A stretch of 63,565 nucleotides of DNA, the filler included. It is 13 parts of 13 records of this genome, joined end to end, with 100 filler letters (N's around TTAATTAATTAA, not from the genome) between each part and the next. Parts side by side here need not be neighbours in the genome. Positions count along the whole stretch, not along the records: positions 43,644 to 52,977 come from SRR7504441_29332; 12 more parts are not named here. One strand, written 5' to 3'. Both the position numbers and the translations under genes were made by a program. Position 1 is the first letter of the stretch, and the number at the start of each line of letters is the position of its first letter. This document shows positions 21,356 to 53,191 of this stretch, piece after piece. The notes under the pieces are model-generated. The model searched no databases. It had not been told where the DNA came from and worked only from the letters and a program-made list of their open reading frames with translations.

Positions 21356-22546
21356 ATGGACACTGCGGCGGGTGAGAGGTTCGTGTGCGTCCCGGGCTGG
21401 GGGCCGATCCACCTGGCCGCCTGGCCCGGGCAGAGCCCGCTGCTGCTCATCTGCGCCGGACTCGCCGCAGCCGGTGCTGGCCTGATCCTTCTGGTCGGGA
21501 TGCTGGTTGGGCTCGGCCGGGGAGGCCGGCGCACGCTGCTGGCCGCGGCAGCTGTGGTCTTAGGCCATCCGCTCGCTCTGGCCGGGCTGCGGCTGGGGTT
21601 GGGCAGTCTGATGGCCCGGCGGATATCCCCGAACCTGTCTGTGGAGACGCTGGCGGCTTCCATCCGGCAGTTAAGCCGGCGCACAGCTGCCCCGCACCTC
21701 CACCGCCAGGGCCGGCTGCCGCAGTCCGGCGAGCTGATCTCTGATAATGAGCGGCAGTCGGTGCTGCGCTCAATCGCGCGCAGTGCGGCTAACTGGACGC
21801 TAGACACGCGGTGGATGGGCACGCCCACCTTCTACTATGGCCCCAAATTCCAGACGCACTTCCGGAACGGCAGGCGCGAGCCCTTCGAGCAGTACAGCGC
21901 GCTAGTGAGCCAGTCGATGGTGCAGGATTTCGGCTGGCTGTACCAACGAGTCGCCAGCGCGCTCTCGGTGCACCTTGAAGCTCCAGTGGAGCTTGACCAG
22001 GGTGCGCTGCCCTTCTCTGTGCACATGCCGAGCCTGGTGCACGAGCTAACAGACGGGGTGATCCACCGGGATGTGTGGAATAAGGGCTCGCCTCGAGACG
22101 AGCAACTGCGAGCGCTCGGGTGCGACCGTTTCCGCCAGTGGGCCGTGCTGCTGCCGATCCAGCAGCCACGGGGCCGCCGCAGCATGTCAATGCACCACTA
22201 TTCGTACAGCAACGATACCGCGGTGTGTCCGGACGAGCCGATACCAGCCAAGGCGGATTGTGTGAACCATTGGACTCACTTTTATCGCGTGGGTCATGCA
22301 ACTTTCATGCCCGGCGTTTCGTTTCGGATGCACCGCATCGGGGGCTGGCACCACACAGCAAGCTGTGCCGAGGGCCTTGCGGCGCAGCGAGAGCCGAACG
22401 GGCCAGTTGAGCTACACGCAGACGCAAGGGTGATGCTGGTAGGTTTCGTAGTGCCTTGTGAACCCCCGCAAAGCTCGACGAATAATACTAATGACATACA
22501 TGTAGGAATGGATAAGCGCGTGTATCGCTTAGTGGGTTACTCTTAA
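21356..22546 (+). CDS. Putative 2OG-Fe(II) oxygenase-like protein with N-terminal TM segments, intronless
   Basis: Candidate facial triad IHRD..MHRIG plus distal RVML; FGWLYQRVASAL resembles uncharacterised microbial oxygenases. Confidence 0.55.
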   Translation: MDTAAGERFVCVPGWGPIHLAAWPGQSPLLLICAGLAAAGAGLILLVGMLVGLGRGGRRTLLAAAAVVLGHPLALAGLRLGLGSLMARRISPNLSVETLAASIRQLSRRTAAPHLHRQGRLPQSGELISDNERQSVLRSIARSAANWTLDTRWMGTPTFYYGPKFQTHFRNGRREPFEQYSALVSQSMVQDFGWLYQRVASALSVHLEAPVELDQGALPFSVHMPSLVHELTDGVIHRDVWNKGSPRDEQLRALGCDRFRQWAVLLPIQQPRGRRSMSMHHYSYSNDTAVCPDEPIPAKADCVNHWTHFYRVGHATFMPGVSFRMHRIGGWHHTASCAEGLAAQREPNGPVELHADARVMLVGFVVPCEPPQSSTNNTNDIHVGMDKRVYRLVGYS

Positions 22547-22818
22547 TTAATTAAGAGAAAAATCCGGACCACCACTGTATNNNNNNNNNNNNNNNNNNNN
22601 NNNNNNNNNNNNNNNNNNNNNNNNTTAATTAATTAANNNNNNNNNNNNNNNNNNNNNNNNNNNNNNNNNNNNNNNNNNNNAGGATCTGTCCGTTGGCTAT
22701 GTGGCAATCCACGGGTGTATCTAGTAGTATTCTAGCACTAAGTCTTCCACCCGCGCCGCGAGCACTTTCCGAGGTTGCAACATTATCTAGATCTAACGGC
22801 AAATCCCAATTTGAGCCG

Positions 22819-43324: not shown

Positions 43325-43643
43325 CGGCAACATCCTTAACTAGTAAAAGAGTATCAGTACATTTATTAGAAAGTCGGAACCACATTACCTATCGTCCTGC
43401 TATCGTCTTACTGTTGTCATTGATATAAGGAGAAATAACTACAGTAATGATTATCCCGCGACCGCGCGGCCTGGCTTGGTTCGGGTGCTTGCCATCGCTC
43501 AAATCGGAGAGATGGTGGAGGCGCTGACTGGCAAGGCGGTGGTNNNNNNNNNNNNNNNNNNNNNNNNNNNNNNNNNNNNNNNNNNNNTTAATTAATTAAN
43601 NNNNNNNNNNNNNNNNNNNNNNNNNNNNNNNNNNNNNNNNNNN

Positions 43644-45892
43644 AGAGCCACCCCCACCCTATTAGTTCGGTCCTGTTCGGTGTTCTCTACAATAAACGGG
43701 ATCCCCGCCCGCAGAGTTGGTGTTTCTCGGGCATTTGTGTGCTTGAGCTTGATCAGATGCGGCCACTTTGCCTGAATCTCATGCCAGAGGTCACTCAGTA
43801 TTGCCGGGATGGCGCATCTCTCTCTCTCGGCCCAGTCACACCATTGGTCGTAGCTGCTTCTCTTGCCTGGGCGGCTGGCCACAAAGTAATCCTCCAGATA
43901 GCCATACTTATCCACTCTAGGGAGCTCGGACAGCCATCTCAGATACTTGCATGTGAGCTGCAGATTCGCCGGCGGGTTGTCGAGCTTTGGCCAGTGGCCC
44001 TTACCTACGTCACGTCCCATCCACTCGCCTGTACGCAGGAAGCGTTTCCGCATTGACAGCATGCTCATGGCGATGACATTGCCGCCGATCCACAGGCATG
44101 CTAGCGCTTGCACGCTGGCTGAGTCCACCTGGACTGCGTCGCACTCGTCGTTGGCGGCGCACAGCTCTGACAGTGCCGCACAAACCATCGCCAGCGCCGC
44201 AACCGCCATGCAGAAGAGCATGTAATAGTCCAGTGCAGTGGCGTAAGGCATATCTGGAAGCTTTTCAGCAATAGTGAACTTCACTGCAACGATTGCGAGC
44301 AGAAGCGCCGAGAACACAGCCATTCTATCGTTGTTCATACTTGCTTCCAGTGCAAACCCGCAGAACACGAGCGACGTGATCACAAACAGTGGTAGCAGTA
44401 CGTTGTACAGCCAAACTGAGAACTTTCGGCTCAGGAACAGCCTGACAACTACTGTCGTATATTGATTCCCCAATGCTGAGCCAGCCGTATCAGTCTCTGA
44501 GAACTCGACATCCACCTCCGTCCCCCGGTCAACGTGTTTGTGAACAGACCAGTTAGCCAGTGTATTGTTGTCCAGTTTTCCTGGAGTCAATCGCATTGGA
44601 CCAAACACGACCTTCTCAGCGTGATCCGATTCAATCAGAATATGCAGCTTCTGGTAATCAGCCGGGAACCGCCTAAGCTCATACGGCTCGGAGAACTCGC
44701 CCACAAAGTGTTGCCGGACCGTGATCATTTGGCCCTTGATCGCCCTGCCCTCACAGGGGGTCCAATCGGGCTCATCGACTGGCCGGATGTCTATCGAATT
44801 CTTCCAAATCATGTACGGGAACCACCTGTCGCTGTCGCTCTGGGCTTCCCACTGCATCTGGAGGAAGAAATGCACCAGAAAGGTCTGCTCCTTGTCATTG
44901 ATGCTTTGCAGGTGGGTCACTGTAATCGCAAACCCTACGTGCCGCCGCGGCTCCTTGAGGTACTCTTTGTCGGGCATCCTCGCGATCTCCTGCGGCGTCA
45001 TCCCGTCAAACCGGTTCAAATACTTGACAATGTGATCGCTCACATCCTTGCCGGTCTGGAACGAGGCTGCACCCAGATTGCCATGCCCATCACCGGAGAA
45101 GCGTACTCGATTAAATCGGCCTGAACTGAGCAGTTCCTTCACCTCAAGGAGGTCCCTATTGATCACGCTGATTGCATCGCGTGTGCCGTCCAGCAGCTGC
45201 CACCGGCGGTCGGGCTCTTTCAGATTCTGATACCCGCGTGCGACCAGCGGATCTGGCCCTGTGCATACGCCCACAGAGCGCGGCGCGGGGTAGGCTCCCG
45301 TAAACCACTTATTGCGCGGAGACCCCATAAGTGGCTCGTCTAGGCTCCAACCCTGGTTGAACATGTTCTGCGCCCGTATCGGATACTCAGTGCAGTCCCG
45401 GCTGTAGTGGCTCAGGTTATCGTCGTTATACACGAACAGCGTGCGCCGGGTCCTTTCCAGATCAAAGTTGTAGTCGCCGGGCTCGCCAGGCCGGTTGTAC
45501 ACATTCTCCTCGACCGTCACCCGCTCCTGCTGCCGCTTAAGCCGCCAGTGCAGCTCCCGGAGCAGCCGGCCTGGCCCGAAACTCCGGTGCCGGCCAGCCC
45601 GGGTGCCGCTCGTGATCATGTTGGCGAGCCAGCTGGCAGAGGTGCCGGGCTCGCACCCTTCGAAGTGGTCCATCCCATGGACGAGCGCCACCGTCTGCCC
45701 CCAGAGCACCAGCAAGTCCAGCGGGTGGGCCCGCAGCCCGCGCGCCTCGCCGAATTCAATCCAGCGCGTCCAGGCCAGCTCAGCCCGCTGCGCGGCGTTG
45801 ACGAAACCGCCACAGGACGAGTGGAGCTCCAGGTCGCTGAGCGAATCTCGCCGGCTCAGGTCCACCGTCAGCATCCGCATCAGGTCGCTCAT
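43644..45892 (-). CDS. Prokaryote-type (GLIC/ELIC-like, Cys-less) pentameric ligand-gated ion channel with large N-terminal extension; intronless, 3' truncated
   Basis: LQSINDKEQTFLVHFFLQMQW, WFP, Pro-loop LRRFPADYQKL, pre-M1 LSRK, M1 YNVLLPLFVI, M2 DRMAVFSALLLAIVA, LPDMPYATALDYY, M3 and M4. Confidence 0.85.
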
Positions 45893-46130
45893 CGCTGCCG
45901 CTGGCTGCTCGGGCTATGTGGGTGCCCCACTCAGCTGCCACTGTCAAACTGAAGAAATGTCAAAGCTCCGGTGGAGACTGATGGGGCCGGGAATGAGCAG
46001 AGACCTATAAGCCCGCGGTGCACATGGGTGCGATCTGAACCAGCCACTGCAGCGGTCGATCAGTAGAGACCATCGTATGGTTCTAATTTTAGCTGTACTC
46101 GTATAATTGATAATTCTAGATATATTCCTG

Positions 46131-49100
46131 TCAAATGCCCAAAACCCCTTCCTTGGGGTTTTGATCCTCCTTCATCGTGTCGAGGTGGATAGTGTCAGCC
46201 TCGAGCTCGGCGTCATTTGATTTAAGATCACCCAACGGGGGCACGTCGAAGCATGATGCTCGCGAAAGCTTCCTGTCGTCCACTGAAATCGGGAAGCTTG
46301 AGTCTATTGGATGGTCGATGGACTGCAGCTCACTAGCCTCACTCACTGACAGATCCCGTGAAAAGGATGGTGCGGCGTGCAACACAGGGGAGAGTAAGTC
46401 CATGCTGTGCCTCTCTGAAGTGAACCGCCGAAGTGTCATGCCTTCTCCTTGCGCAACTGGCTGCATGAACACGACTGTACATGGCTTGTCCATACAGCTT
46501 ACCTTGATTTTATCTTCAGTGCAATAGAACCTCACCTGTCCACCAATATCACAATGCAATTTTTCCTGGCCGCTCTACCTCGGTTCCATCCCAAAGCACG
46601 GCGTCCTCGGTGTACCGCTGAGTCTTGTGGCTTGATAATGCCGCCAGACAATAAGCTCTTGATCTACAGCAAGTTGCTCATGCAGGGCTCGGTGCAATAC
46701 AAGTAGCACCTTTCTTCGAGACAGCCGCAGATCCTGTAATTGCAATCACGGTCCCCTCCGCACTTGTGACTCCACTGGAGCTTATAGTTTACGCGTAGAC
46801 CCTCTACCTCGTCGACACGCATGTCTGCGACAAATTGATCAGAATGTGTATTATTGGGGATTCGGTCACGATAAAGTTGCGCAAAGTGCTTATTGCAGTA
46901 TACGACCACATTCCCTCTTGTCCTACAGTACACCTGCAAAAGCCATCTATCTAGCCGCCTTTTGCAAGAGGCCAATGTCACCGGCATCGGAACGTGCCGC
47001 ATCAACTCGGGTGAGGCTGAGTGTCGCAAAATTTCTAAGCCGAGCATCGCTCGATCGCCGGGGGTGACGCCAGCATGGACCGCTCGGCTTGAGATCTGCA
47101 GTGAAGGTGTCAGGCGTGACAAATGAGGCAAGTGACACACCCGAGGTTTGATTACCCACTCTGTGGCCAAGGCGGTGCCCCCTTTCGATGCAAGTCCCCC
47201 CGAGGTGTTGTAGCGGTCAAGGCGCTTCAAAAGCGTTCCGTACATCTTGATTACGTTCTCACCCTCTTGCGCTTCGCTGTCGTGGAAGAAAAGAACATAC
47301 ATCTCCAGGAATACCCCCGTCAGGAGATTAAGCATCACCATCGAAGCGATGTAGTTGAAACCCACAAAATAAAGTTCCGTCCATCGCGTTCCGCTGCAGA
47401 GTGTGAACCCATCAGTTGTGACCATCCAGTTGTTCTGTATCATAAGCATGAACAGGGTGCAAAAGGATGCGAATGCATTGTCAAAATTGAGATCGTAATA
47501 GAAGTCAGTCTGCCCGAATGATGTGCTGTTCCACGGAGGGTTTTTCCATGTTCCAGGTCCTACGGGTGGAACCTCAGTAACACAGCCTGCAAAGCAACCT
47601 TGGCCAATGCAACTGAAGCCAAAGTATACTGTTATAAACAAACCACAGAGTGGCAGCACAGATCGGATGCATCGGATCGCTGCGTAATATGCGCGGCGTA
47701 CGTTGTCGATCATTAACATGAGGATGACACACTTGATTGCCCGGACAATATCTAACATACTGCTCCAATCGCCATGCGCTGTCAGGTCAGGCACTGATGA
47801 GCAAATATTAGCCAGCGCAGCAGCCAACATAGCAACGAATAAGGCATCGATTGCATGCACAAAGTGCATTTTGTAGAGGAACTGAAATCGATACCCACCC
47901 TCCTCCTTTCGGGCAAAAGGTATGAGATACCAGAAGGGCTCCGCGTGCCTACTGCAGGCCAAGCCACAAAGCAGCATATCTATCCCAAAGACAATGAGGT
48001 TCACAGCCCATTCGTATGTCCTGCTGTGGACAGAGCCACATCGATCGCTATCGTGGGTATACGGCTCATTGTGGTAAATGATTGGAAATATCATGCTTGC
48101 AAAAGTAAGCACTGTCATCACACTAGAGTAGGAGATGCCCTTCATCAGACTGGCTGGTACCATCTGACTTATGAGGCCGGATTCGGCTTCGCCACTGACC
48201 GCATCCCTCTGGTTCTCACGAAAACAGCAGTTCCACAACGTCAGATCGCGTATGAAGTAGCGTAGCCTCGGAAAGCGTGGCTCAGGCTCGCACAAGCAGG
48301 GCTTCGCAGGCTCGAATGGTGCTCGAACAAGCACTGGGAGCTTAAGGAATTCCTCGAGGGAGACCTCACCGTCGCAGTTGACGTCCATGATGTTAAACCA
48401 CAAATCTTTCCACCTTTGACTAGGCGCCACTAGATCTACCATCTGGTCGAACGTTGCCTTGGTCAGCCCAACCTCGCGATCGTCCATTGCGTGCGTTCTC
48501 GCGACCCCATCGTTGCCATGTAGTACTCTAGTGTAAGCGCTCAGCAGCACTGCCTCCTTCTCGGCACACTCAGTACTCCAGCGCTGCTTCGCCATCTTGG
48601 CGTAGGTCATGCATATGTGCGCTAGAAAGATGTTGTTCAAGAAAAGATGTGTCACTGTCATGAATGAAAGTAACAATAGCATGTCTGCCGCCACCAGTCA
48701 GCACACTCCAAGGCAGGGCTTAGACTCACTGCTCCAGTGAGCGTTGTACATGACCATCCAAACATCGGGATGGTTAGCCGTGGTCAGGGCCACATACATG
48801 CTGAACAGCCCGTGCCAGCTGTCGCTGAAGTACATGGAGCGCTCTAGCTCTGCAGCTTCGCCGCCCTGCCATGTAATGCACGCCTGGGCAACAAAGTAAT
48901 GCAGAATGAAGGACATCAGGAGCAGCGTAAACACTCCAAGCACATTCTTGAAGGTGGACACTGTCTCGAAGAACGCCCTACGAATCCCATGGTCGCAGTA
49001 CACTAAAAAGAAGCAACGGGCAGTTCGCAGGAACACAAAAAGCCCACTCGTGACAGTGCCATATCTGTAGCCCGCGCTCGCCAGTTTCTAGAGGGAGAGG

Positions 49101-49965
49101 CTTACATTGTCTCCTTGCGGTAGACGAGCAGCTCGCAGTATCGGGTCACTCGCGAGGCAACAGACACCTGAAACGGTCTCGAGTCCGGCCACTGACCAAG
49201 CGGCCGACCAGCACCATCACGCAGCCAAGAAATATCCACCAGTGCTCGTATGGCAGGAACACGAACCCGCGCTCGGTCTTTTGGCTGGCGGCCAGTCAGA
49301 AGCAGCGGCCAGGGTGCTCACCCATAGATGTGTTTTATCGCATGGACCGGCCGGTACAGGCTGACTCCATACACATTGTTTGCGTGCCGCATGCCATTCC
49401 TAATGCACCACAGCCTGCCCGGCCCGCTGAGCCGCTCGCTCAGGCTGGCCGACGCACTGCAGCCCGAACAAGCAGGCGAAATAGCCCGTGATGGCCCAGA
49501 ACAGCACGTTCCCTGCCCAGTGCACCCTGAGCCGCCACCGGCCGGCCGGGCCGCACCGACGCTGATGACCTGGTCGGTGGCCCGCACGAAGATGCGCTCG
49601 TTCAGCGGCTCTTCGCAGAAGCTGAGCAGCACGTACATAAAAGCCATCAGCTTTGTCAGCCCGCAGCTGACCGAGTGGCCGAGCAGAACGCTCAGTCTCA
49701 ACTGGAGAGGGGTGCTGCCCCATATCGAGACGGTCTTGAGCGCCCCGGTGATCGGACTGGGCTCTGACTTCTCGTCGGTGTAGTAGTAGCTCGTCCTGTT
49801 CCGGCACGCGTCGCGCACAGCGATCTGGACGTCCAGCGGCACAGTTGGCGGCGCCTCGGGCTGGGTCGATCCTCTGGAGGGCTGGCCGCGCGGCGGCGGG
49901 AGCATGCAGGAGTCGCCCCAGTTGTTGCCAAGCGGGTTGACCTCCATGCTCACCTTGTCCGCCAT
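46131..49965 (-). CDS. Two-pore channel (TPC)-like cation channel with EF-hand linker and PAS-like C-terminus
   Basis: Pore I FSMYVALTTANHPDVWM; EF DVNCDGEVSLEE; pore II LNFDNAFASFCTLFMLMIQNNW; S6 VMLNLLTGVFLE. Confidence 0.85.
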
Positions 49966-50062
49966 GGCGCCGCACAGCCTCACCCACAGCCCCTCACAGC
50001 CTGGAAGGCAGCCCACGACCGTTGCACGGAAGCACCAGTGGTCACACAGGAGGACAGGCACC

Positions 50063-50881
50063 ATGTCCTCGATGCTTATGGACATGAGCGCCGCCCTGGC
50101 GGCGGGAGAGGGTGACCTGAAGCAGCCGGAGGCCACTGCCGCGGACAAGCTGTACGAAGAGTACAAAGAAGCCCGGCTCGAGCGGCGGCAGAAGGCCGAG
50201 CTGCGCCGGAACGCCAACCCTGAGGCCTACTACGACCTGCCGATCATCCCGGCCGACCAGTTTGCCGCGAGCCTAGACAAGCAGCACGAGACGCGCGAGC
50301 CGGCCCCGCTGCCCGACCTGCACCGGCCGATCAAGCCAGCCACGTATGAGGCGGCGCCGTACGCTGTCCCCGAGCATCCCGGCCTGAGGGTGCAGCAGAG
50401 CTCGGGCGCGAATCAGTGGACAGACAAGCACGTGCGCGAGGACCACGACTACTGGAAGATGGGCCAGTGGACCCGGCACATCCGGGACGTCCACCGGGCC
50501 TCCCCGTTCCAATATGAGGAGCAAGAGGCCGAGCTGCGCCGAGTAGCAGCCAAGACTCGCGAGCGTGAGAACGCCCGGGCGCCCTACCCGTACTCGTACC
50601 GGGGGGTGGAGCAGCCGTCGGCGCAGGAGCCGTTCCACTATCCGAACCACCATGGGCAGGTTCAGAGGACAGTGACGGCGCACCAAACAGCCTACGATCA
50701 GCGGTATGGCAACTCGCTGGCAACTCAGAGCGCCCGGTCCATGCCGGTCACTTTCATAAAGCATCGCAATCCGAGGGACCACCTGGGCCAGGCGGCCGGG
50801 GCTGGCTGCTTTAAAACGCATCGGAATGCCGTCGGGTATGAGCCGGCTGCCCAATCCGCTTACGGTGGTGTGTGGCAATAG
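50063..50881 (+). CDS. Hypothetical hydrophilic protein, intronless
   Basis: 272-codon ORF with GC3-rich codons and AATAAA downstream (about 50898); 97 bp head-to-head with the TPC gene. Confidence 0.65.
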   Translation: MSSMLMDMSAALAAGEGDLKQPEATAADKLYEEYKEARLERRQKAELRRNANPEAYYDLPIIPADQFAASLDKQHETREPAPLPDLHRPIKPATYEAAPYAVPEHPGLRVQQSSGANQWTDKHVREDHDYWKMGQWTRHIRDVHRASPFQYEEQEAELRRVAAKTRERENARAPYPYSYRGVEQPSAQEPFHYPNHHGQVQRTVTAHQTAYDQRYGNSLATQSARSMPVTFIKHRNPRDHLGQAAGAGCFKTHRNAVGYEPAAQSAYGGVWQ

Positions 50882-51056
50882 GAGTGAGCTTCATTCCAAT
50901 AAAACATACGTACATAGTTGTATTATTGATGTATTCGTTCAATAACTAGTTCAGATCCAATCCGCCCACGCGCCCAGTTCTCCCAACCCATCAAACAGCA
51001 AACAGGGCGTCAAGATAATAACGACATTGGTCCAGCTGCAGCTTTTCGAGAGCATC

Positions 51057-52668
51057 ATGGCTGCGCAGCTGGCGGAGATGACCGGAATGCCCGAGGCGGA
51101 GGCACAGGGGTTCCTGGAGATGGCCGGGGGGGACCTTGACACGGCCATGTCCCTCTACTTCTCGATGATGGACGACGGACCCCCCCCGGCCCCGGCAGCG
51201 GCCGGGCTGGATGCGCCGGACTGGTTCGGGCTGGTCTGGCCGTCGTGTGAGCCGCTCCCGGACTGCTGGGCCGGGCAAGGGCTCGAGTTCTCGCCCGGCT
51301 GTTTCGGGATCCCTCAGCACAAGAACGGGCCGTGTGGGGTGCTCGCGGCGGTGCAGGCGGTTGTGGCGGTACAGGCTGCTGAGCTCAGTCCGACCATGGC
51401 GGTGCCCGACAGTGCGCTCGTAGCTGCCCTGGCCAGCATCATCAGCCAGGCCCGGCCCAGCGCCGAGGCCGGCTGCACTGTGGCGCTCTGGCCAGAGGGC
51501 ACTCCAGTCGCTGACCCGGCAGTCCATCCTGTGGCCCAGTCGGAGCTCGCTGAGTTTCTAGAGCGGAACGTCGACCAGTTCAAGAAGCCGGGCGGCTGTG
51601 TGCTGCTGGTGTACGCCTGTCTGCTCACCCGTGGCCCGGAGCAGGTCACAAAGGATATGGCGTCCGAGATGGAATCGGGGCCTCTTATTCTCGCGCCAAC
51701 CTACGTGTGCTCGATGCCGCTGATGGGACTGCTGCTCAAAGGCGTCGCCCAAGGGTCCATATCAGCCTACACCGCGCTCGGCGGCGCGCCGCAGGACTGG
51801 CCGGCTGGGCTCGGGGTAGGGCTGCTTTCTTTCTCCGAAGTCGATTCCGGAATCCCTATTTGCGATGCTCTGAAGAGCCCGAGCAGCTTGGTGTGGATTC
51901 TACATGGGGGCGACCACTTCACTGTGGCATTCAGCCAAACGGACGTGACTGCCGCCCAATTCGAGCTGTGGCACTACAATGGTCTGCCGCCAGCCGGGCC
52001 GCGGATGACAAAGGTACCAGGCTGGCTGGTTGAGCCGTCTCACCGTGTGGGGCAGGTGACTGTGTCAGCGCCGCACGGGGTGGCCCCCAAGGCCCCGCCG
52101 GGACCGCGCGAGGACAGTTTCTTGGCGCCAGTGCCGGGCCAAGTGGAGGGCGTGGTGCAGTGCAGATCTAGTGATAAGGAAGCCCGGCCAGATGAGTGGA
52201 AGACCTGGAGGTGCGAGCACCCGGTTGCCTTCCCGAGCCTGGGCTAGCTACGAGGTGGTGCTGGCCGTGGCTGACCTGGACTTCTCTCTGTACGGCAAGG
52301 GCCGGGACCGGACTGAGGCCGACCCTGAACCCGAGCTGCACTCACTAGGTCCGGAGCTGGTGCAAGCGGCAGGCTGAGTGTCAACAGGTGAGGCGCCCAC
52401 CGGGGCATGGCGGTGCGCCACGTGCTACCGGGGGCGGTTCAAGACCATGTGCTTTGGTCAGAACGACCCCGGGACGGTGGTCTGTGGCCATTGTGGGAAG
52501 AGTCAAGCCGAGGCCGGCTGGTCGCTTTGGCTGCCCTACGAGCAGCTGCCACCTGGCAAGAAGGCCTCGGTGAGTGCACAACATGCGCCCAAGATCGTCA
52601 CGTTGCTCGGGACCAAGTGGCCGGGCGCTGACTTGGTATTTGACGCCGATGGGTGCCCAAGCGTGTGA
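51057..52668 (+). CDS. MINDY-3/4-family deubiquitinase with N-terminal UBA-like domain and C-terminal Zn finger
   Basis: UBA-like AQGFLEMAGGDLDTAMSLYF; catalytic QHKNGPCGVLAAVQA; VWILHGGDHFTV; WHYNGL; WRCATC..NDPGTVVCGHCG. Confidence 0.85.
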
Positions 52669-53191
52669 AAATCATTGTCGACTGGACCACCATGCATGCG
52701 GCCCTTGAGTTTGGATGCCACACTTCATTCTCAGAGAACCGATTCTGGATTCAGTTTAGAATTAGAGTCTCCGACATCGAGGCGTCGATTCGGTTTTATT
52801 GCAATTTTCAGCTATTGTACTGATTTAGTATTGATTCATGACGGCGCGGGATTACTCTGGGATTACTATATTTGTTAAAAAATGCTTGATCGAATTGGTT
52901 GAATGCACGGGGCTCTACTACATGTATACTATAGATCAAGTCAAGTTGATTGTGTTGCTTCCCAGATACGTCCGGACNNNNNNNNNNNNNNNNNNNNNNN
53001 NNNNNNNNNNNNNNNNNNNNNTTAATTAATTAANNNNNNNNNNNNNNNNNNNNNNNNNNNNNNNNNNNNNNNNNNNNAAGTCGGGGCCCTAGGGCTCACA
53101 TAACCTACTTAATAGTTCATGATCAGTACTTAATATATCGATTGCGTCCGGCATCATGAGTCGAACACTACTCGTATGCTCGTTTATTCAA

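Follow-up and report, generated by a model that had tools for sequence, protein, structure and literature searches.

The window analysed here, a stretch of 63,565 nt consisting of 13 contigs joined by 12 N44-TTAATTAATTAA-N44 linkers (window 4751-59467), carries on one of its contigs (43644-52977) a gene in which a domain that appears to belong to the DUF7831 superfamily is joined to a Cys-less ion channel of the pentameric ligand-gated type (pLGIC). Because the window is made of joined contigs, features beside a linker are contig ends, and genes separated by a linker are unlinked. The open reading frame (ORF) occupies 43644-45892 on the minus strand: from an ATG at 45892, a single stop-free frame of 749 codons plus 2 bases runs down to the contig end at 43644, before which lies the linker 43544-43643. 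An in-frame stop is found 8 codons upstream of the ATG. Given that the ORF reaches the contig end, its 3′ end is open and the gene is truncated.

The encoded protein begins with an N-terminal extension that has no hydrophobic leader (residues 1-118; 45539-45892), the end of which, from about residue 85, can be aligned to the environmental protein P0015. It continues with the divergent DUF7831-superfamily α/β domain (residues 119-300; 44993-45538), a short linker into β1 of the ligand-binding domain that is conserved in the environmental proteins P0003 and P0007 (residues 301-318; 44939-44992), the Cys-less ligand-binding β-sandwich (residues 319-489; 44426-44938; Pro-loop FPADYQ at 44651-44668), the transmembrane domain M1-M4 (residues 490-615; 44048-44425) and a tail that starts at RKRFLR (615-620) and is cut by the contig end (residues 616-749; 43646-44047), all encoded on the minus strand. 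An earlier note on this DNA, made from the sequence alone, had described a Cys-less pLGIC core preceded by about 315 residues without a hydrophobic leader and followed by an extension of more than 130 residues, in a gene without introns. The first half of this description was borne out: the core matches solved Cys-less channels, and hydropathy over 19 residues peaks at 1.09 in residues 1-300, compared with 1.6-2.3 in M1-M4. The extension after M4 comprises at least 134 residues, as proposed, although 43644 is the end of the contig and what is seen is not the whole gene; no family was found for this tail in Pfam, and an ESM Atlas search with it gave no usable match. The absence of introns holds for the fusion ORF but not for the locus, since the assembled RNA contigs from four runs that served as RNA evidence support a 43-nt intron in a neighbouring gene.

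Searching the PDB sequences by phmmer (266 distinct chains at E ≤ 10) revealed variants of ELIC as the best match of the core (E 1.2e-14; query 319-563 to chain 14-271), and GLIC also matched (E about 1e-8; query 319-607 to chain 18-309). Hydropathy delimits four hydrophobic helices (490-521, 521-547, 550-583 and 594-615), with M1-M3 alignable to ELIC and M1-M4 to GLIC. In the ELIC alignment, FPADYQ (409-414) pairs with FPFDRQ, D522-R523 at the start of M2 with E-R, and LPDMPY between M2 and M3 with LPRLPY. Metazoan-type Cys-loop receptors have two cysteines 13 residues apart around the F-P-x-D loop. Residues 319-489 contain a sole Cys, C380, and FPADYQ has none beside it, indicating that there is no Cys-loop. 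The M2 residues D522/R523, L532, F539 and E543 presumably correspond, on the ELIC alignment, to positions -1′ (D), 0′ (R), 9′ (L), 16′ (F) and 20′ (E), and we infer that such a pore pattern fits a cation channel. A full-length AlphaFold2 (AF2) model built from 7 sequences was unusable (predicted local distance difference test score, pLDDT, 42.6).

The N-terminal domain of the window protein contains the motifs PGDYNF, TLFVYNDDN, PRSVGVCTG, GYQNL, INRDLLEVKELL and GNLGAASF. Eight motif strings built from motifs quoted in the earlier note were all located at 45059-45481, three of them lengthened by 1-3 flanking residues. When residues 1-315 were searched exhaustively by phmmer against 1.84 billion representatives, 31 proteins were found at E ≤ 1e-3, 4 of them at E ≤ 1e-10, and the matches fall within residues ~95-310, P0006 excepted; the latter, a bacterial repeat protein, was dropped as a low-complexity match. 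A profile search added 31 proteins, reaching down to E 2.7e-55 and including one from Florenciella sp. virus SA2, with no precomputed Pfam domain in any of these 31. The family thus recovered spans marine-eukaryote, giant-virus and phage proteins. Stand-alone members are 141-280 aa in length, while the domain is fused to a sub-threshold OTU match in P0010, to GST domains in P0011 (two Karlodinium veneficum transcripts fall in its cluster) and to DUF4326 (40.1 bits) in P0017. Relatives are also encoded at five loci of giant-virus metagenome-assembled genomes (MAGs) in IMG/VR, as a stand-alone ORF of 205 aa and as ORFs that are longer (543, 577 and at least 926 aa), the last of these (L006:3705-6482) having a DUF7831-like domain at its start. 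No Pfam partner domain was recognised in the MAG relatives, and partner-domain scans of 10 longer family members returned nothing useful. Word-indexed searches with residues 1-315 and 1-749 found no match and an ESM Atlas search with residues 1-315 no usable one; metagenome scans with an alignment, A5, and with the window protein, as well as viral-contig scans with P0009, the channel core and A5, found no relative, and a viral-contig scan with P0017 matched in its DUF4326 part only.

The family consensus runs GDF-x-W-x-I, TL(Y/F)(I/V)FNDN, GGGNA-x-IRP and RSAG-x-x-TG in its first part, and GY-x-x-L, ID-x-D-x-x-EI-x-x-LL-x-TG-x-Y and YS-x-D-x-x-G-x-LGT-x-IF in its later part. In a subgroup made up of the window protein, P0002 and P0005, GGGNA-x-IRP is replaced at the aligned position, and P0003 is gapped and unalignable there. 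The other motifs persist throughout the fused subgroup, whose identity to the window protein (P0001) is 28-44%.

The connection with Pfam DUF7831 (PF25176) runs through intermediates. Four of the 38 aligned family members match this model, P0031 clearly (39.9 bits, cut-off 27) and P0012, P0045 and P0013 weakly, and the N-terminal domain of the window protein matches P0031 at E 4.9e-4. An AF2 model of residues 105-315 built on the family alignment (pLDDT 87.6; predicted template modelling score 0.85) shows alternating strands and helices, with an insertion at about residues 176-203 modelled at low confidence. When this model was compared with the predicted viral structures of BFVD, DUF7831 proteins made up 6 of the 50 matches listed, at ranks 1, 2, 5, 7, 8 and 15, and came from Hyperionvirus, Tupanvirus, Caulobacter phage Seuss, a crAss-like phage, a Rhizobium phage and Yasminevirus; the best match had E 4e-3, with modest template modelling scores (0.37/0.55), and the probability was 0.98 and 0.96 for ranks 1 and 2. 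Taking these intermediates together with the predicted fold, there is indirect support for the domain being a divergent member of the DUF7831 superfamily. The DUF7831-like resemblance that the earlier note had suggested was therefore right at the superfamily level, through 4 of the 38 members, P0031 and BFVD, with the window copy itself missing the Pfam model. In the structural comparison that it had proposed, DUF7831 proteins were matched in BFVD, and Foldseek run against the PDB gave no match at E ≤ 1e-3. When PDB sequences were searched with the family profile by hmmsearch, a single row came up, at chance level (E 0.67). The DUF7831 model matched none of 14 control genomes, and Macro control scans gave no loci; tblastn of P0009 against phages found no match, and tblastn of P0031 found 2 weak matches in hypothetical proteins with uninformative neighbours.

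The same fusion was sought elsewhere, as the earlier note had suggested, and its junction is present in three other environmental proteins from other assemblies. P0003 (235 aa) and P0007 (448 aa) run from the N-terminal domain through a conserved linker of ~20 residues into the first strands of the channel, and P0004 runs from the N-terminal domain into the linker and the first channel strand. These gene calls, made automatically on short ENA or Logan contigs, are probably cut by introns, and no full-length orthologue was recovered in the protein, metagenome and viral-contig searches. Judged by the sequences, the fusion of a DUF7831-like domain to the channel is real and recurrent. That it might be an artefact of assembly or gene calling, with two genes read as one, is highly improbable: the window does come from short contigs of a binned assembly, yet one stop-free frame extends from 45892 to the contig end, the junction is repeated in P0003, P0007 and P0004, and the linker is conserved. 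P0002 and P0015 each lie on a 1402-base contig and represent adjoining parts of the N-terminal region, with P0002 taking over at the point where P0015 ends; a single gene, divided on one contig by an intron or a frameshift, may account for both.

An upstream exon supplying a leader, which according to the earlier note would have overturned its reading, was looked for in the 238-nt gap between ATG 45892 and the end of the upstream ORF (46131), and no plausible candidate was found there. The gap has no codon periodicity, and its sole two ATGs, which share one frame, open a stop-ended ORF of 22 codons. In the ORF frame, the GC content of third codon positions (GC3) lies between 0.33 and 0.63 in the 270 nt ahead of the ATG and at 0.87-0.90 from there on, with a step from 0.60 to 0.87 at the ATG itself, so the coding signal begins at ATG 45892. 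P0015, which is aligned from about residue 95 of the window protein and has 84 residues before that point, is also leaderless. GC3 is 0.88 in the first 118 codons, compared with 0.72 in the whole ORF and 0.60 in the neighbouring channel gene.

The distribution of basic residues around the predicted helices is uneven. On the side of the ligand-binding domain, the sensor side, are R484, R489 and K490 before M1, K544 after M2, and R615, K616, R617, R620 and R627 after M4, the last group forming a cluster of 5 within 15 residues. On the opposite side R523 stands alone, and the M3-M4 link is very short and acidic, with no K/R and five D/E in residues 577-594. This bias of about 9:1 towards the sensor side is the reverse of that in the canonical orientation, and under the positive-inside rule it predicts a cytosolic position for the N-terminus, the ligand-binding domain and the tail alike. 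For a folded N-terminal region of 489 residues, translocation by a downstream anchor would not be expected, and the presence of such a region without a signal peptide also favours a cytosolic N-terminus. Taken together, the lack of a leader, the coding signal from the ATG, the lack of a leader exon and the charge bias favour an inverted topology, which the earlier note had raised as a possibility and towards which we also count the leaderless P0015 and the sole Cys in the ligand-binding domain. An N-in/C-in inverted orientation is thus plausible from the sequence, and the further step to an inverted channel gated from inside the cell is, in our estimation, at best an even bet and perhaps somewhat less.

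In the explanation that we prefer, an intact gene in the nuclear genome of a marine protist encodes an ELIC-like subunit with a DUF7831-type module, a long tail and its sensing side in the cytosol; we give this explanation as a whole a probability of about 0.5. Five copies of the protein would make up a Cys-less pLGIC that resembles ELIC and is probably selective for cations. In it M1 would act as an N-in signal anchor, placing the N-terminal domain, the nominally extracellular domain and the tail together in the cytosol, or else at an organelle's cytosolic face. Five N-terminal domains, connected by the linker, could form a sensor or modulator ring atop the ligand-binding domain, like the N-terminal domain (NTD) of DeCLIC, and this ring would bias gating on binding a small molecule inside the cell. 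Our guess at the ligand, and a weak one, is a nucleotide-derived molecule; it is prompted by the Gly-rich loops after predicted strands, the DUF4326 fusion of P0017 and the occurrence of DUF7831 in large proteins of crAss-like phages. In its boldest form, which we offer as a tentative proposal with the odds somewhat against it, the protein would represent the first inside-out pLGIC lineage, residing in the plasma membrane or an endomembrane of marine protists, with cytosolic sensor parts and gated by an intracellular nucleotide-derived messenger.

A number of observations weigh against the cytosolic-sensor explanation or parts of it. Pfam recognised no family in residues 1-315 at E ≤ 10 and none in residues 105-315 at E ≤ 1, and no solved fold resembling the N-terminal domain came to light: besides the empty Foldseek result against the PDB, the wide VIA comparison gave a best Z of 5.0 (TsaC2) and no convincing solved fold. 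A macro-domain fold (PF01661) was considered but is not assigned, since the 12 of 50 VIA rows that bear it in their titles have Z of 3.3-4.5, which is noise level according to the tool, hhalign of the family against E. coli YmdB gave a probability of 0.17%, and no Pfam Macro match exists in the 38 members. A literature search on DUF7831 found no paper and no description of its function. The loss in the window copy of the GGGNA loop, which most family members keep, implies that the copy may not bind the same thing as they do, and its loss from the fused subgroup weighs on the guess of a nucleotide-derived ligand. As for the topology, the positive-inside rule is statistical, and to our knowledge all pLGICs carry some basic residues before M1. 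P0003 is hydrophobic at its start and P0005 weakly so, by automatic calls on short contigs; however, the first part of the domain is missing from P0003, and its hydrophobic start is probably no true N-terminus. No RNA contig from the four runs covers 43947-46067, so that the 5′ end of the fusion gene is uncovered and its start unproven, and the C-terminus is missing at the contig end. Lastly, the core falls short of the curated channel models: NCBIfam LIC (TIGR00860; E 8.4e-16, 57.7 bits against a cut-off of 280.2) and LGIC_1 (NF033918; E 7.3e-10, 38.7 against 500) are far under theirs, and Pfam Neur_chan_memb (E 5.3e-6, 27.3 bits against 28.1) and Neur_chan_LBD (E 0.019, 14.8 bits against 26) also miss. 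We take these misses to mean that the core is a divergent pLGIC member, the PDB matches being significant nonetheless.

These points bear on two other explanations of the protein. If the topology were canonical, the N-terminal and ligand-binding domains would be extracellular or lumenal, delivered there by a missed signal-peptide exon or by unconventional export, and the DUF7831-like domain would be an outside sensor module, like the DeCLIC NTD or the modules of bacterial PBP/Cache fusions. This would agree with the established knowledge that every characterised pLGIC has its ligand-binding domain outside, and it gains from the fact that the organism splices short introns (the 43-nt GT..AG intron of the neighbouring gene), from the uncovered 5′ end and from the hydrophobic start of P0003. 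We nevertheless regard it as unlikely, given that the 238-nt upstream gap has neither codon periodicity nor an ATG-initiated ORF of more than 22 codons, that GC3 rises exactly at the ATG, that P0015 is leaderless too, that the charges favour N-in by about 9 to 1, and that general knowledge does not lead one to expect 489 folded residues to be carried across a membrane by a downstream anchor. Alternatively, the protein could have the fold of a channel without ligand-gated function, serving as a scaffold or having a constitutively leaky or closed pore, with a DUF7831-like domain devoid of its ancestral activity. The missing GGGNA loop, which is common in stand-alone members, and the missed channel cut-offs would be expected in such a case; the retention of the pore-lining pattern, the Pro-loop and the M2-M3 motif, the intact ORF of 749 codons with strong codon bias, and the preservation of the other N-domain motifs in the fused subgroup at 28-44% identity make a non-functional channel decidedly improbable, more so than the canonical topology.

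Cys-less pLGICs of protists have already been published (Jaiteh et al., 2016, PMC4795631; diatom survey, PMC11085791), and in the excerpted passages of the former the words 'N-terminal', 'signal peptide' and 'fused' do not occur. The window protein shares with ELIC, GLIC and the protist Cys-less pLGICs the β-sandwich, the F-P-x-D Pro-loop, the four helices, the very short M3-M4 link and the lack of Cys-loop cysteines. What sets it apart from ELIC and GLIC is that its ligand-binding domain is preceded by 318 additional residues and M4 followed by at least 134, and that the protein is leaderless with a reversed charge bias (a K/R-free M3-M4 link and a basic cluster after M4). Like the window protein, DeCLIC (PMC9897478) has an extra N-terminal module directly before the ligand-binding domain, expected to modulate gating, and so do the bacterial pLGICs for which Tasneem and co-workers reportedly described modules of the PBP, Cache or MCP-N type in 2005. 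The modules of DeCLIC and of the PBP, Cache and MCP-N fusions are periplasmic and have export signals, whereas that of the window protein is of the DUF7831 superfamily and has none. As regards Pfam DUF7831 itself (PF25176; phages and giant viruses), the domain is linked to it transitively by sequence and by the top structural matches in BFVD, but the window copy misses the model, lacks the GGGNA loop, has the insertion at ~176-203 and is fused to a channel. A functional analogy is offered by TRPM channels with an N-terminal SLOG (melastatin) domain, a cytosolic Rossmann-like domain on a channel with a nucleotide-derived ligand; TRPM2 is gated by ADP-ribose through its N-terminal SLOG region. 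TRPM channels nonetheless belong to an unrelated superfamily, no SLOG domain is among the 50 VIA rows listed, and nothing here shows that DUF7831 is a SLOG domain.

What is new here is the DUF7831-superfamily partner domain, the long tail after M4 and the combined evidence for an inverted orientation, the channel core being of a known kind. A literature search on inverted pLGIC topology found nothing on the subject by title. The pLGICs are among the best-studied receptor families and, as far as we know, ligand sensing takes place outside the cell in every known member. A lineage whose sensor is cytosolic would, if true, alter the view of pLGIC evolution and gating polarity and prompt the search for an agonist inside the cell. 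With the fusion there is also a first functional handle on DUF7831, which is spread over giant viruses, phages and marine algae, and if the inside-out reading is true, this orphan domain would gain its first function, that of a ligand-sensing module.

The neighbours of the fusion gene on its contig are eukaryotic. Upstream on the same strand (46664-48694, minus) is a channel gene with Ion_trans (Pfam, 1.6e-15) and a weak EF-hand match, and the ORF next upstream of the fusion gene (46131-46559, minus) may be the 3′ exon of this gene, which would then occupy 46131-48694; with the Ion_trans gene directly upstream on the same strand, two channel genes stand in tandem. No paralogue of the fusion gene was found within the window. 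RNA contigs belonging to 3 runs in 2 studies lie over 46154-46633, one of them joining across the intron (minus strand, 46536-46578), and in the tail of the fusion gene a single poly-A metatranscriptome contig matches 43725-43865 with 3 differences; DNA carry-over may be the source of these RNA contigs. Further along the contig, an ORF at 51027-52247 (plus) encodes a MINDY-3/4 deubiquitinase domain (E 2.1e-22) and a UBA-like domain. Elsewhere in the window, an extra copy of TTAATTAATTAA is present at 22543-22554, 27 nt ahead of a spacer, and on the neighbouring contig (42166-43324, plus) the kinase motifs HRDIKAANVF and DFG are visible in the translations of the ORF listing.

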